Source of the DNA: an uncultured Pseudomonadota bacterium
GTDB taxonomy: Bacteria > Pseudomonadota > Alphaproteobacteria > Rhizobiales > Xanthobacteraceae
Assembly (NCBI GenBank): GCA_963707705.1
Contig: CAVPRD010000003.1
Span: 10,306-74,305 of the forward strand
Direction: 5' to 3'
DNA length: 64,000 nt
Shown here: positions 15,048-42,647 of the stretch, piece after piece
Layout of the letters: each line of letters begins with the position of its first letter
How positions within the stretch are numbered: position 1 is the first letter of the stretch
Translations under genes and position numbers: made by a program
The notes under the pieces: generated by a model
What the model saw: the letters and a program-made list of their open reading frames with translations, nothing else
Databases searched by the model: none
Told to the model about the DNA's origin: nothing

Positions 15048-16130
<1,083 letters not shown>

Positions 16131-31054: not shown

Positions 31055-31733
31055 GGATTCGAGGAAGACCAAGGCCGGCCCCGCCTTCCTTCGCGACAGC
31101 GGAAAGCCCGGGCGCGATTGCGCGCTCTGCCCGCGCCTAGCGGCTTTTCGCGAGGTGTGCCGACAGCGCGAACCGGGGTGGTTCAACGCGCCAGTCGCAT
31201 CTTTTGGTCCGAAATCAGCCGGTCTTCTTATCGTCGGGCTTGCCCCCGGTCTGCAGGGCGCGAACCGCACCGGCCGACCCTTTACCGGCGACTATGCCGG
31301 CGACCTCCTGTTTCCGACGCTGATCGAGTTTGGTTTCGCACGCGGGCGATTCGAAGCGCGGGTGGACGACAGCCTGGAGTTGATCGAAGCGCGGATCACG
31401 AACGCAGTACGCTGCCTTCCGCCCGAGAACAAGCCGACACCGGCGGAGATCGCCACCTGCCGCAGCTTTCTCGAAGCCACCATCGCCGAAATGACAGAGT
31501 TGCGCGCGATCGTGGCGCTAGGCCGCATCGCACATGATGCGGTTGTGACCGCACTCGGAAAAAAGAAATCGGCGGTGAAATTCGGGCATGGAATGCGCAG
31601 CGACCACGGCCACATCGCGCTTTTCGACAGCTACCACTGTTCGCGTTACAACACCAATACCGGCGTGCTTACGCCGGAGATGTTTCGAAACGTATTCGCC
31701 GCTGTACGAACGCATCTCGACGCCGCTTCCTAG
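31032..31733 (+). CDS. Uracil-DNA glycosylase (family 4/5-like)
   Basis: CALCPRL, GLAPGLQGANRTGRPFTGD, NAVRCLPPENKP, SYHCSRYNTNT. Confidence 0.9.
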   Translation: MATISTTEDSRKTKAGPAFLRDSGKPGRDCALCPRLAAFREVCRQREPGWFNAPVASFGPKSAGLLIVGLAPGLQGANRTGRPFTGDYAGDLLFPTLIEFGFARGRFEARVDDSLELIEARITNAVRCLPPENKPTPAEIATCRSFLEATIAEMTELRAIVALGRIAHDAVVTALGKKKSAVKFGHGMRSDHGHIALFDSYHCSRYNTNTGVLTPEMFRNVFAAVRTHLDAAS

Positions 31734-31847
31734 ATCACCATGATTTTGGATTGAACAAATTCAAAATTATAAACATGATCGATTCTAATCATTTAGAGCA
31801 TGATGTCGTTCGAAAAGCGCTTCACACTTTTCGGCATCATGCGCTAA
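31730..31847. repeat. Rhizobiales intergenic palindromic repeat (RIME/MITE-like), copy 1
   Basis: CTAGATCACCATGATTTTGG...GAAAAGCGCTTCACACTTTTCGGCATCATGCGCTAA; aligns end to end with the reverse complement of 36968-37084. Confidence 0.8.
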
Positions 31848-32746
31848 GTGGCGCTTGCCTCGTCGCACCGGCGCACCAATTTCTCGATTTTGACCAGGGT
31901 CGTTTCGTCATCGAGCAAAGGCGCGTGGCCCTGATCCGGCACCTCTACCACCTCGAGATCGGAGCGCCGCGTGCGCATCGCTACAACTGTGTCGAGCGAA
32001 AGAAGGTCCGACAACAATCCCCGGATAACCATCACGGGAACGCGTGGCAGCGCATCGAACTGCGCCCAGAGCGGCGGCGGCAATGTGTCGGGCGTCACCG
32101 CTTGAAGAGTGTTGCCAAGCTTTGGATCATAGCGCGCGGTTAGGATGCCGCCGTCTTCTATCCAGCTTCGCTGCGCCCAGGCCAGCCATTGCGCGTCGGT
32201 AAGCTTCGGGAATTGTGCACTGAACAGACGGCGGAGCACCGTGACCCCGTCGGCATAGTCGCGCGGACGCGGCGTCCGGCCGACATAGCCCTTGATCCGC
32301 AACAGGCCCTTCATTTCGATGATCGGCCCAATGTCGTTCAGCACAGCGCCGGCGATCAGCGATGGACGCGCCGCTGCAAGCAGCATCGTCAGAATGCCGC
32401 CGCGCGAGGTTCCGACAAAGATTGCCCGATCGATACCGACCGCAGTAGTGACGGCGATCACGTCGGCAAGTTCGATCCGAGGATCATAATTGCGCCATTC
32501 GGGGTCATGCTCGGAGAGGCCACGACCGCGATAGTCGAATGTGTATACGCGCCGCGGACTTGCAGGGTCCGACGCGAAACGGCTCGCCAGCGTCTCAAAA
32601 TCCGCCTCGGTGCGGGAAAGACCCGGCAGGCAGACGATCGGAAGGCGCGAATTCACCGCGCCGTGTGCCCGCACGTGCAGGGAAAGGCCGTCAGGCGCGG
32701 TGACGAACAGGCTATCGGAGCTTGCGGGCCGGGCAATATCGTGCAT
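31844..32746 (-). CDS. Alpha/beta-fold hydrolase
   Basis: CLPGLSR, DYRGRGLS, GTSRGG nucleophile elbow, GHAPLL. Confidence 0.9.
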   Translation of the reverse strand: MHDIARPASSDSLFVTAPDGLSLHVRAHGAVNSRLPIVCLPGLSRTEADFETLASRFASDPASPRRVYTFDYRGRGLSEHDPEWRNYDPRIELADVIAVTTAVGIDRAIFVGTSRGGILTMLLAAARPSLIAGAVLNDIGPIIEMKGLLRIKGYVGRTPRPRDYADGVTVLRRLFSAQFPKLTDAQWLAWAQRSWIEDGGILTARYDPKLGNTLQAVTPDTLPPPLWAQFDALPRVPVMVIRGLLSDLLSLDTVVAMRTRRSDLEVVEVPDQGHAPLLDDETTLVKIEKLVRRCDEASAT

Positions 32747-36952: not shown

Positions 36953-36967
36953 CCCGAAGCGCAGGCC

Positions 36968-37084
36968 CTAGGGCATGATGCCGAAAAGCGCGAAGCGGTT
37001 TTCGGACGAGATTATGCTTTAAACCATTAAATCGATCACGTTTATGATTTTGGATCGATTCGATCCAAAATCATCGTGATCTAG
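36968..37084. repeat. Rhizobiales intergenic palindromic repeat, copy 2 (inverted relative to copy 1)
   Basis: CTAG...CTAG termini; internal palindrome ATGATTTTGGATCGATTCGATCCAAAATCAT. Confidence 0.8.
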
Positions 37085-38174: not shown

Positions 38175-38206
38175 AAAGAAAAACCCCCGGCCTTTCGGCC
38201 GGGGGT
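38175..38206 (-). terminator. Terminator after porin half-copy
   Basis: ACCCCCGGCC-GAAA-GGCCGGGGGT-TTTTCTTT on the minus strand. Confidence 0.85.
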
Positions 38207-38242: not shown

Positions 38243-39240
38243 TTATGGCCAGAAGCTGCGCTGCACGCGGAGAGTGGCAGACCACACGCCGATGTCGTTG
38301 ATGTTGTAGACACCGGGGGCGAGGCCTTGGTTGGTGTTACCGCTCGAGACAGCTGTACCCTCAAAGGCCGTGTTGACCTTCGTGTAGGCAACTTCAACAC
38401 CCACGTCGAGGTTAGCCACCGGGTTCCACATCGTGCGCGAAGCAACTCGCCATGACGACCAATCGGGGTCGCAAGCGAACGACTGCTTGGTGCCGCTGTT
38501 AACAGGCGTCCTCAGACCGGAAGCGGCACAGGTGCCAGCGCCGCTAGCCTGCAGAAGCGCCTTTACCTGGTCGCTGTATTCTACGCTCACGTAGCCGAAC
38601 ACCCATGAAGTGCGCAGCGCAGGCGTCCAGTAATGCTCGAAGGCAACTGTGCCGCCCCAAGTCGTCGTCAGCTCAATGTCGCCGTTGTAAGCTGCTCCAA
38701 CACTTGTTCCAGCGGGGCGCCCTGGGGCCGAGAAGATACCGTCGCTCCAGACGCCCTGGGCAATACCCTGTGACTTGTACAGGAAGTTATTGGTTTGGCC
38801 GAAAGCAACCGCCCTTGAGTTACCTTCCGCGTATGCGATGACGCCCGACAGGGTGTCCTTCGCATCCCACGGCATCTTCAAGGTCAAGCCAGCACCGACC
38901 GCCCAGCCCCACTTGTCGTCGGGATGAGAGCAATTGTTCGTATTGGGAACATTGCAAATGCTAGTGGCTTGGCCATTCGGGAAATCGCCACTGAAGTATC
39001 GACCGCCGACTTGATGCAGGCTGCCCATGATCTGAGCAGAACCCCAAGCCTGATCGACGCGAAGGTTACCGACGATGTCAGGTATCGCCTGTCCCTTGGT
39101 ATCGACCGCCGGGCCAAAATTAGGTGCCGCTATCAAGCCGGCGCCGGTAAGGTGAACTGGTCGATCCACGGACCCGCGCTGATCGAGCGAACGCGTCTTC
39201 CGCCGAAGAGGCTGACAGGGCGATAACGAGACTGCGCTGG
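38243..39240 (-). pseudogene. 3' half-copy of an alphaproteobacterial (RopA/Omp2b-like) porin, lacking promoter, signal peptide and N-terminal half
   Basis: PDIVGNLRVDQAWGSAQ...WSATLRVQRSFWP is colinear with 42648-43640; homology fades through many small indels at 39130-39240. Confidence 0.88.
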
Positions 39241-40179
39241 AGGCTTACCGAAGCGAGGGCGGCGCACTTGCTGAACGAAGGAGCCAAGCGCAACGAACTC
39301 TCATGTGCGTGCACCCGCAGCCCCCGCTGAGGGCGTTGTGAGTGTGCGACCGGGGGCCTCGATTTTCTGCGGTCGGCGGGCTTTGCATCACCGCACGGAC
39401 CGCAGGCAGGCGAAAAATTCCCCGCCATCATTTTGGGCCCCGGATGGGCGTTCGGTCACTCGAGAACCCGCCATTTTGCGACCAGTCCGATAGTAGCGTG
39501 CAAAGTTAGTTTCGGTCGGGGAGGTTTTTCCGCAAGAAACCGACTTTTCAGCGTCCAGCGTAGATCGATAAGCAAAATCAACATTAATCAGCATTCTCCG
39601 AGAGTTTTCCCGAATAGAACAGTGGTGAGACTATGAAGACACGACGAAGAACTAATCAGAGGCTAGAATAAGTTGAAGCTGACGCTATTAGCGAAAGCTT
39701 TGTCGATCACGCTGATGCTGAGTTTTAGAGCGCGGCGACGATCCGATGGTAGTTGCAATGGGCGGCATGCAGTAATGACCGCCGTGCATATTGATGCTGT
39801 TCAAATTATGAGCCAGCAAAGCACTGCACGGATTATGCGTGCTGCTGCTGATCAGAGTTGAACGAGCTTCCGACGCAAAGGAGGATAACGAAGCAATTGA
39901 AATTGATTTTAGTACTAAATTCGTGATATGACATTTAAATCGTTTGTGTCGCGAATGATTCGACGCCTGGCCGGACGGAGGTATGCTTGGAATCAGTCGC
40001 ACCGCTTGACCCTGATAGAGCGGGCGCAAGATCGAAGCGAGGCTTAAAGAGGATGGCTGCGCAAATGCAGCGGTCGAAGATCCCCAAACAATTCTGATCT
40101 TAAACCGGCAGGCGCTTTGGCGCCGCCAGCGTCTTAAGCGGCAGGGAAGCCGCAGGGATATAATACACGTGAGCAAACA

Positions 40180-41312
40180 TCTTGACCCAGTCAGTCGCAA
40201 ACCTCGCCGACCTCGTTGATGGCACTGCAAGACTTCAAAGACAAGTATTCGGACCGTCTTGACGACGTTGAAAAGAAATAAGACCGCCCCGGCATCTGTT
40301 TCGACCGGCAGCAGCAGCGGCAATGCGCGCGCTCTCGCCGAAGAATATCAACGCTCTCAGCCAGAGTTCGTCAAAGAGCGGCGACGAGCCGTGCGTTCAA
40401 TTCGTTGAGCAGTCGATTGCAAATCCAGATGGCGGATACCTCGACGCATCCGGAGATCGCTAAGCAGATCAAGCTTAAGCTGACGAATGCATCGCCTATT
40501 CGTCAGCTTGCCACGAGTCATTGAAATCGGATCGGGTGATTCGTTCTCCGAGCCTGTAGACGTTTAGCGACGCCGAATCTGGATGGGTAGGCGGAGACGA
40601 CAAGCCCGCCCGAGACTGACGCAGGCGACTCTGAAACAAACCGTCACGCCGCTTGGATGAGATTTATGCAAACGTGCTCGTGACGCAACGGCTTGCTGGA
40701 CGATAGTTAGTTTGACGTTGGAAATTGGATCGTAACGAAAGTGGCGCGGCGCTTTGCGGATGTGGAAGATGCTGCATTCGTGAACGGCAATCAACCGCAC
40801 AAGCCGAAAGGCATTCTGACATATGAGGTTGCAAGCGAAGGCGACTAGCACGCGGCATATTTGAAATTCCAATATGCAGCCTCCGGTGCTGTCAACCAGC
40901 CTAACTGCGGATAGCCTCATCGATCTAGTTTACTCATTGCGTCCTGCCTAGCGGCAGAATGCCGTGATCGTGATGAATTCGAACACCGCTCGGTGTGGTC
41001 CGTAAGTTGAAGGACGGCGACGGGAATTTCTTGTGGGCCCCGGGTCTGGCGGCAGATCAGCCTGACCGCTTGCTCGGGCATCGAGTCATTTTGGACGAAA
41101 ATATGTCCAGATGTGAGCGCGGGTACTATTCCCAGTCGTCATTGCAGACTGGCAACGCGCTTACAACATCGTTGAGCGGCCCGGCATCAAGTGGTTGCGC
41201 GATCCTTATTCGTCACAAGCCGAACGTTGGCTTCTATGCTTATCGTCGCGTCGGAGGCGGCGCATCCGGCGACTTCGATGCGGCCAAGTTCTTGAGGATC
41301 GGAACGAGCTAA
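40180..41312 (+). pseudogene. HK97-type phage major capsid protein, multiply disrupted
   Basis: Fragments DGGYL, PEIAKQIKLKLTNASPIRQLA, LLDDS*FDVGNWIVTKVARRFADVEDAAFVNGNQPHKPKGILTY, IDLVYSLRPA*RQNAVIVMNS, VRKLKDGDGNFLWAPGL, RRVGGG..DFDAAKFL. Confidence 0.85.
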
Positions 41313-41544
41313 ATGAATCCGAAGGGCGAGTATGGGACGGGGGACTCGCAATCAGTCCTTAAGCGATAGTGTCGCTCGCCAGGAGACTTTGCTGGTCTCG
41401 TCACTCGCGCACTATCGCACGATTGCACAAAACGACTCTCCCGGATTGCGCGTGGTGGCCAATCCGGAGATGAGTCAGCGTCAAGCGGGTCGGTTCTCGG
41501 ATGTACAGATCCGATCCGCAATATTTCTCAACGGAGATTTGACT

Positions 41545-41776
41545 ATGGATTTTGAGATCGGAATTGAGTCTGACTTAGTCAGCAGCAGATTCTTGCTGGA
41601 CGCGCTCGACGTGCTCGATAAGCTGTACGGCGGATCGTCGCGAGTTTAGATTCTTCGATGACGAAGATTTTATTTCATTTCGATTTGACGATGAATTGAA
41701 AGCCGAGAAATTCCGCTTTCGATTTTCTGGAACGCGATTGCCGACTCCAGCCGGCGTTGCGTGGTGGTCGATTTAG
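41545..41776 (+). pseudogene. Small hypothetical gene with an apparent frameshift at about 41645
   Basis: GGAGA RBS; MDFEIGIESDLVSSRFLLDALDVLDKLYGG continues in another frame as FFDDEDFISFRFDDELKAEKFRFRFSG. Confidence 0.4.
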
Positions 41777-41883
41777 ATTGATTTCAGCGGCCGAATCTCC
41801 CGGTCTGTCGACGAGCCTGTAAAATTCAAGATCGGGGCCGCGCTTACGTCAGCATACCGACCAGAAAGTCGCGTCGTAACTTA

Positions 41884-41939
41884 GCCGCCGCCGGAGTTCA
41901 CATGTCGACAGACGTGCCGGCGGCGGCCCTTTTATCTTT
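41884..41939 (+). terminator. Terminator-like hairpin inside the island
   Basis: 11-bp inverted repeat GCCGCCGCCGG/CCGGCGGCGGC followed by CCTTTTATCTTT. Confidence 0.5.
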
Positions 41940-42279
41940 CATCGCGGGTCGCGACACTCCGGGCTTTGCGATGGCGCGCGGACAAGTGAATGAGCGTGGT
42001 ACAGGTGCTATGCGCCCAATCGCGATCGGTCGCTTAGGGGGCGTCGATCGGGATGGTCATCGCCTTCGATGCGCGTTCCAAAGCGGCGGCCGCCCTGCCC
42101 GGCCCAAACCTAATTTTCGTCTTCCAACAGTGGATAGCGGGAGGATTTCCCCCTGCCTTGATCGTCAATATCGGTAATCACCTGAGACACGGCTTCAGCA
42201 GTTGGCGTCCAACTATTTTCCCGTCGCCATTTACGTAGCCCCAATATGCCGGAGATATCAGAAACGGAACCGTCTCTGT

Positions 42280-42570
42280 TTAACCGTGTCCTTCCCGAGC
42301 TATCTCGACACCGGCCACAATCGCCCCTAAATCGAGAACCCCATTGTCATCAAAGCGATAAATCGAACCGGCTATCTTCTTAGGCACGCCAGCGGGATCG
42401 AATGTTACTTCCAATATCGACTGGGAGGTCCCGGCGAAACGCTTGAATGAAACTCCCGCCAGCATTTGCTTGAACACCGATACCGGAATGCGTGCGGTGG
42501 GCCGCCCATCTTCGAACAAATACAGTCTTGTGGGATATCGGCGGGGTCGGCGTTGGACCATGGCGAGCAT
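42280..42570 (-). CDS. Hypothetical protein in the island
   Basis: 96-aa protein-like ORF (LYLFEDG..RIP...RFAGTSQSILEV...IYRFDDNGVLD); no function recognised. Confidence 0.5.
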   Translation of the reverse strand: MLAMVQRRPRRYPTRLYLFEDGRPTARIPVSVFKQMLAGVSFKRFAGTSQSILEVTFDPAGVPKKIAGSIYRFDDNGVLDLGAIVAGVEIAREGHG

Positions 42571-42582
42571 CGGGTGTGTTCC

Positions 42583-42617
42583 AAAAGCAAAAGCCCCCGG
42601 CTAGCTGCCGGGGGCTT
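42583..42617 (-). terminator. Terminator after full-length porin
   Basis: AAGCCCCCGGC-AGCTA-GCCGGGGGCTT-TTGCTTTT on the minus strand. Confidence 0.85.
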
Positions 42618-42647
42618 GAGTTAGGATCGCATTAGCTCAGACTTGGC

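Follow-up and report, generated by a model that had tools for sequence, protein, structure and literature searches.

The window, by which is meant the whole stretch of 64,000 nucleotides that was analysed, carries a complete HK97-family major capsid gene on its plus strand at 40170..41312, running from start codon to natural stop, and the three plus-strand frames of this interval jointly spell the complete protein. The preliminary description had held that an HK97-type capsid could be rebuilt across frames, and this was confirmed using Pfam, PHROGs and alignment to an intact homologue, P0001. The Pfam profile PF05065 (Phage_capsid) matched all three plus-strand frames, with HMM positions 7-131 at 40450-40854 (E 1.3e-16), 144-251 at 40895-41215, and 175-269 at 40989-41264 (E 1.2e-12). 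Two of the frames scored 62 and 49.1 bits against a curated cut-off of 24.2, read-through frames gave E values of 6e-16 and 5e-12, and membership of the family is far above chance level. PHROGs returned solely 'major head protein' families for the region.

A frameshift-aware protein-to-DNA alignment placed residues 25-366 of P0001 on 40255-41309, with 70-71% identity over 341 codons. A second homologue, P0004, aligned over residues 7-371 at 60% identity and extended the match to its residue 7 at 40188. Upstream of this, two further +1 shifts lead to a probable GTG start at 40170, where the gene reads VSKHLD compared with M/VSTFED in P0004 and P0001. The natural TAA stop at 41310-41312 coincides with the C-terminus of the homologues; the gene thus slightly exceeds the extent of 40180-41312 given earlier. 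The gene is colinear with intact HK97-family members over its full length, with every domain kept from start to stop and the N-terminal delta/scaffold-like segment included, and it resembles P0001 and P0004 throughout, from the delta-like N-terminus to the C-terminal ...RIGTS. In contrast to these two intact genes, its frame is broken about 20 times in this assembly; an uninterrupted frame is absent, and at least 17 single-base insertions and three to four stops were counted.

The island and its porin flanks

The capsid gene sits in a genome-specific island of 3.4 kb (39236..42647, no strand assigned), which was recognised by its composition and its absence in relatives and whose boundaries were taken from the alignment of the two porin copies, A and B, on either side. 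The GC content of the island is 0.47-0.57 versus about 0.60 in the flanks, and GC3 of the capsid gene is 0.61 versus 0.75-0.85 for dapA, SOD, and another capsid gene of the same genome (C19:22092-23129). By composition, the island is foreign. Its DNA had no match in 24 genomes of the same genus, and likewise none in the 40 related genomes searched. The three same-genus genomes whose locus was compared (G024, G017, and G016) carry dapA, smpB, SOD, one porin, tRNA-Ser, and GST with the island missing, and the backbone on both sides of the island is colinear with that of relatives.

The island is flanked by direct repeats of approximately 1 kb, which correspond to the 3' part of a Porin_2 gene and are 88% identical overall (up to 96%). 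Along the minus strand, tRNA-Ser is followed by full porin B (44328-42648), a terminator, the island, porin copy A (39235-38243), a terminator, and SOD. Porin B (42648..44328, minus strand) is a full-length Porin_2 gene, identified by PF02530 (E 6e-56) and by alignment to copy A and to the porins of relatives, and is split into two frames by one extra A at about 43170. Porin copy A (38243..39235, minus strand) is a displaced, promoterless 3' copy whose homology to B reaches precisely to the stop codon; the copy stays in frame between 39109 and 38246, and its 5' edge at 39110-39235 is rich in indels. The two copies differ in short, indel-rich, loop-like segments, and each has its own stop codon and its own terminator-like hairpin, located on the minus strand at 42591..42617 after porin B (at the right edge of the island) and at 38183..38206 after copy A. 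The tRNA-Ser(GCT) gene upstream of porin B (44772..44864, minus strand) belongs to the conserved backbone and does not mark a junction of the island. Elsewhere in the window, stretches of approximately 45-120 nt at about 36964-37019 (just past smpB) and, further upstream, about 31733-31860 recur at dozens of scattered places in related genomes with 75-94% identity, and look like a dispersed intergenic repeat family.

Besides the capsid gene, the island contains a second conserved gene at 42148..42570 on the minus strand, recognised by homology to the 141-aa protein P0098. Its first 88 codons are in frame, and a net +2/-1 shift follows at 42272-42300. Pfam, PHROGs, and Atlas gave no usable assignment for it. 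A 129-aa protein, P0097, from a 613 kb ENA contig of a second assembly with a near-identical island, is the same as it for those 88 codons and thereafter departs from it, through one indel and several substitutions, exactly where the window copy leaves the frame. The two copies lose the frame at the same spot in different ways, and P0098, from a short contig, reads straight through. The ORF at 41332-41646 matched only itself among 1.8 billion representatives and was treated as orphan or spurious.

The preliminary description had found no other structural phage gene, and this was upheld. When the island was read through in all six frames and compared with Pfam and PHROGs, the capsid was the only phage family to appear, no PF00589 integrase was present on contig C3, PF04860 (portal) had no match anywhere in the genome, and the only match to PF04586 (prohead protease) in the genome was on contig C19. 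For remnants of neighbouring head genes, a tblastn search with all ORFs around 16 capsid homologues gave noise only, and a frameshift-tolerant comparison of 255 neighbour ORFs of capsid homologues with both island flanks reached a real maximum of 80 against a null maximum of 100. The modules that a prophage would need to be intact or inducible (integrase, terminase, portal, tail, lysis) were not found beside the capsid gene, and no att-like structure was seen at the island except the porin repeat.

Relatives of the capsid protein

Among 5.8 billion proteins, the closest intact relative was P0001 (366 aa), which originates from a JGI metagenome and was named HK97 family phage major capsid protein by JGI. 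It was followed by P0004 (371 aa), which is 63% identical to P0001. In a tblastn search of 50,697 phage records, the best matches of P0001 were proteins annotated as major capsid in phages of Pseudomonas, Klebsiella, and Yersinia, with 38-40% identity over about 95% of the length of P0001. By sequence, the solved structure closest to P0001 was the Rhodobacter capsulatus gene transfer agent (RcGTA) capsid (6TB9, E 3e-67, residues 16-364). The indication of an HK97 fold for the window gene is indirect, by way of the sequence match of P0001 to this solved capsid. The window capsid is about 40% identical to the capsids of siphophage isolates and of the gene transfer agent. The best matches are phage and GTA capsids, and neither of the outcomes that would have spoken against the preliminary reading, an encapsulin or no hits at all, arose. 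Encapsulin was rejected since Pfam gave only PF05065, and not Linocin_M18, for the window frames and for P0001 (which matched no other Pfam family), and no encapsulin cargo-like gene was recognised near the capsid.

The RcGTA major capsid protein, Rcc01687 (PDB 6TB9/6TBA), is alphaproteobacterial and by sequence falls in the same HK97 fold family as P0001, but it scores no better for P0001 than the capsids of ordinary prophages and phages (230 bits versus 241-274 bits). RcGTA possesses a head-tail cluster, whereas none is present at the capsid locus, and an RcGTA-like cluster (approximately 15 head-tail genes) was rejected, as neither the island nor the contig gave any other structural family.

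Among 400 genomes of the order, no match above 44% identity to the capsid lineage was present among the best matches listed, and 400 genomes of the class gave nothing at E 1e-95 or better. A protein search restricted to 185-2000 residues gave no intact copy of the capsid at 90% identity or above, scans of metagenomes, genomes, and viral contigs with P0001 returned relatives at 36-43% only, and the island DNA was unmatched in phage records. As judged from the collections searched, the capsid lineage is rare. The same genome contains two intact HK97-family capsid genes, at C19:22092-23129 (plus strand) and C19:277232-278254 (minus strand). Because these are just 30-42% identical to the window capsid over the aligned pieces, the latter is not a recent paralogue of either. 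Integrase matches lie near the two C19 genes (C19:8688-9186, 15189-15527, and 280865-281383), as does the sole PF04586 match of the genome (C19:18978-19145).

Lesions in the capsid gene and in the assembly

Relative to P0001, the capsid gene has 17 single-base insertions and no deletion (binomial p 1.5e-5), in agreement with the several 1-nt insertions described earlier, and its N-terminus needs one or two insertions more. At least six of the 17 are impossible as homopolymer slippage or copying of the adjacent base, and the 1.14 kb of the gene contain no multi-base indel and no truncation. In-frame stops are located at 40279 (TAA), 40708 (TAG), 40846 (TAG), and 40949 (TAG); the preliminary positions were correct for three of these, and the one placed near 40856 is really at 40846. 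By hand reading, the stop at 40846 vanishes if it is assumed that a base was inserted at that point and another lost 9 nt downstream. The other three look like plain nonsense changes, namely TAA where P0001 has L and other homologues have M or V, TAG at Q, and TAG at a conserved Y. Stop-codon recoding and programmed frameshifting were rejected, since the stops hit Q, Y, and L/M/V columns and the 16 listed shift sites have no common motif.

Conserved genes elsewhere in the assembly (G000) were examined for comparison. Open frames of at least 200 aa from 365 kb of the intact same-genus genome G017 were aligned to the assembly, which provided 151 genes at 70% or higher amino-acid identity with 50,103 internal codons. 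Breaks were present in 22 of these genes, comprising 29 single-base insertions, eight single-base deletions, and nine in-frame stops; in a first pass in which more ORFs were kept, 18 of 30 insertions were outside homopolymers. Most of the 22 broken genes are located in three patches (C6:205-217 kb, C19:180-193 kb, and C15:9793-11440). The last of these is glmS (GATase and two SIS domains), a single-copy gene in this genome, which has six insertions and two deletions at 88% amino-acid identity. Conserved genes that are multiply broken in neighbouring clusters with their amino-acid identity unchanged cannot be natural pseudogenes. The consensus of this assembly contains errors that are patchy and biased towards insertions. 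The preliminary description had matched the insertions to an error signature extending over the whole window. This was correct insofar as the same signature breaks conserved and essential genes of the assembly, but the signature is patchy, and the core genes flanking the island in the window are clean, as are the first 264 nt of the neighbouring 141-aa-type gene. The capsid ratio of 17 insertions to no deletion has the same direction as the 29:8 of the core genes (Fisher p 0.046 for the difference).

Two further observations were made on the assembly as a whole. Three tyrosine recombinase/integrase genes (C7:118796-119274, C19:8688-9186, and C10:276082-276574) are each split into two adjacent pieces lying in different frames. 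The assembly also contains 50 'ORF deserts' of 0.9-4.4 kb, mostly with a GC content of about 0.51-0.59 versus 61% for the genome (e.g. C9:155539-159410 and C2:171024-175347). One of them is an rRNA operon (C4:236.5-241.5 kb), and two others contain, respectively, only an N-terminal TctA fragment beside a Crp-like gene and a lone RHH_4 gene. Their use as a reference-free map of noisy regions was dropped, as one was the rRNA operon and the latter two had no multi-frame broken genes.

In bacteria, natural pseudogene decay is biased towards deletions, involves indels of varied size, and falls mainly in homopolymers; a deletion bias was reportedly found by Mira, Ochman and Moran (2001). Decay of this kind would not leave the pattern seen in the capsid gene. 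The frame loss in the second island gene, at one spot but in different ways in the two assemblies, is a further hint of technical error. We infer that most, and possibly all, of the roughly 20 insertions and few stops are probably consensus errors of the metagenome assembly, so that the capsid may be intact in the cell and its status as a pseudogene is unproven. Some real decay on top of the technical noise is quite possible. The overall reading that we favour, with some reservation, is that of a genuine complete gene, a lone phage leftover in a foreign island, whose breaks are mostly assembly error. The earlier suggestion of a decayed prophage therefore stands as far as a remnant is concerned, given a phage-type capsid that is alone in a foreign, genome-specific island, and the decay itself is, probably, mostly not biological.

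The main alternative is a true pseudogene, in which all or most of the frameshifts and stops would be real and would have arisen once a prophage had been inactivated and for the most part lost by deletion. It is favoured by the three clean nonsense substitutions and by the amino-acid branch, which is longer in the window capsid (about 0.18 changes per site) than in P0001 (0.125, with P0004 as outgroup), as relaxed constraint predicts. The indel density of the capsid gene, about 1.6%, is also well above that of noisy core genes, being about 3x that of the worst core-gene patch (about 0.4-0.5%) and about 60x the average, and the clean 264 nt of the adjoining gene indicate that noise is uneven over the island. 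In addition, the protein collection contains no near-identical intact protein of at least 185 residues, and since the search gave no intact capsid at the 90% level, the capsid of the second assembly is probably also broken, or else different, with the caveat that this assembly may derive from related reads. Nevertheless, 17 insertions without a deletion, all of one base, at least six of them outside homopolymers and with no truncation, are a poor fit to this alternative. With about 20 real indels, substitutional decay should be heavy as well, yet the conserved columns have fared no worse than in intact relatives: of 66 highly conserved family columns, 11 are violated in the conceptual capsid protein, compared with 10 in P0001, eight in P0004, and 14 in P0005. 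Lesions of the same type, moreover, break glmS, which is essential and single-copy, together with 21 further conserved genes. On balance, a true pseudogene is considered unlikely, while deserving serious weight.

Origin of the island and significance

The island is read here as the last piece of an integrated phage-like element whose other genes were deleted. Its layout, in which foreign DNA separates an entire target gene from a displaced 3' copy, resembles that of elements which insert into the 3' portion of a gene and supply it with a new end; a partial porin duplication followed by a later insertion would fit equally well. Integration of the former kind is that of e14 and phage 21, which sit at icd in E. 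coli, and it leaves cryptic prophage remnants beside a duplicated 3' end of the target. By analogy, the island appears to share with these elements a whole gene, foreign DNA, and a promoterless 3' copy ending at the stop codon, but neither an integrase nor an att core was identified in it, and the duplicated segment, at about 1 kb, is much longer.

A misassembly, in which the island or its placement between the porins would be a chimeric join through the porin repeat in a strain mixture, was judged improbable. The 1 kb repeats of 88-96% identity, the extremely indel-rich left junction at 39110-39235, and the patchy consensus errors of the assembly speak for such a join. However, each porin copy has its own stop codon and terminator, the copies show loop-like differences as in real paralogues, part of the island is also present on the 613 kb contig mentioned above, and the backbone on either side is colinear with relatives. 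There is also only a slim chance that the capsid is intact in the cell and kept as an orphan, forming with the 141-aa gene the cargo of a small element that inserted in the porin gene, gave it a variant C-terminal half, and displaced the original 3' half.

The preliminary description had also suggested a capsid-encoding satellite of the cf-PICI type. The cfPICI core consists of 11 components (integrase, regulator, primase-replicase, capsid, protease/decoration, HNH, portal, adaptor, connector, terS, and terL), of which at least nine are needed for detection (PMC10085698). Such a satellite, or another mobile element with its own capsid, is highly improbable: the island does share with cfPICIs an HK97-type capsid gene that has no tail or lysis genes beside it, but the capsid is the only one of the 11 defining components found and the other 10 are missing, the 3.4 kb of the island are far too small, and there is no integrase on the contig and no att-like structure apart from the porin repeat.

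In the favoured reading of a lone phage leftover, the capsid most likely has no function. HK97 capsid proteins with a delta domain depend on a portal, a maturation protease, and a terminase, and because no portal, protease, terminase, tail, or integrase gene is nearby, the lone capsid cannot build or fill a particle. It is common for structural genes of phages to be left over as orphans in small islands. Under the improbable reading of an orphan cargo inserted into the porin gene, given above, a likely phage receptor would have been changed on integration, and a domesticated capsid-like shell protein could remain.

For the genome as a whole, assembly errors break about 15% of the conserved genes sampled, one of them essential. 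Since these insertion-biased errors break conserved genes in patches, frameshift-based evidence of decay is unreliable in this assembly, and calls of 'pseudogene', 'decay', or 'frameshift' in this genome and its windows should not be relied on without a check of the reads. The biological weight of the locus is small and lies in the capsid itself, which adds a rare HK97 lineage to the known capsid family, and in what may be the insertion of an element into a gene for a porin.
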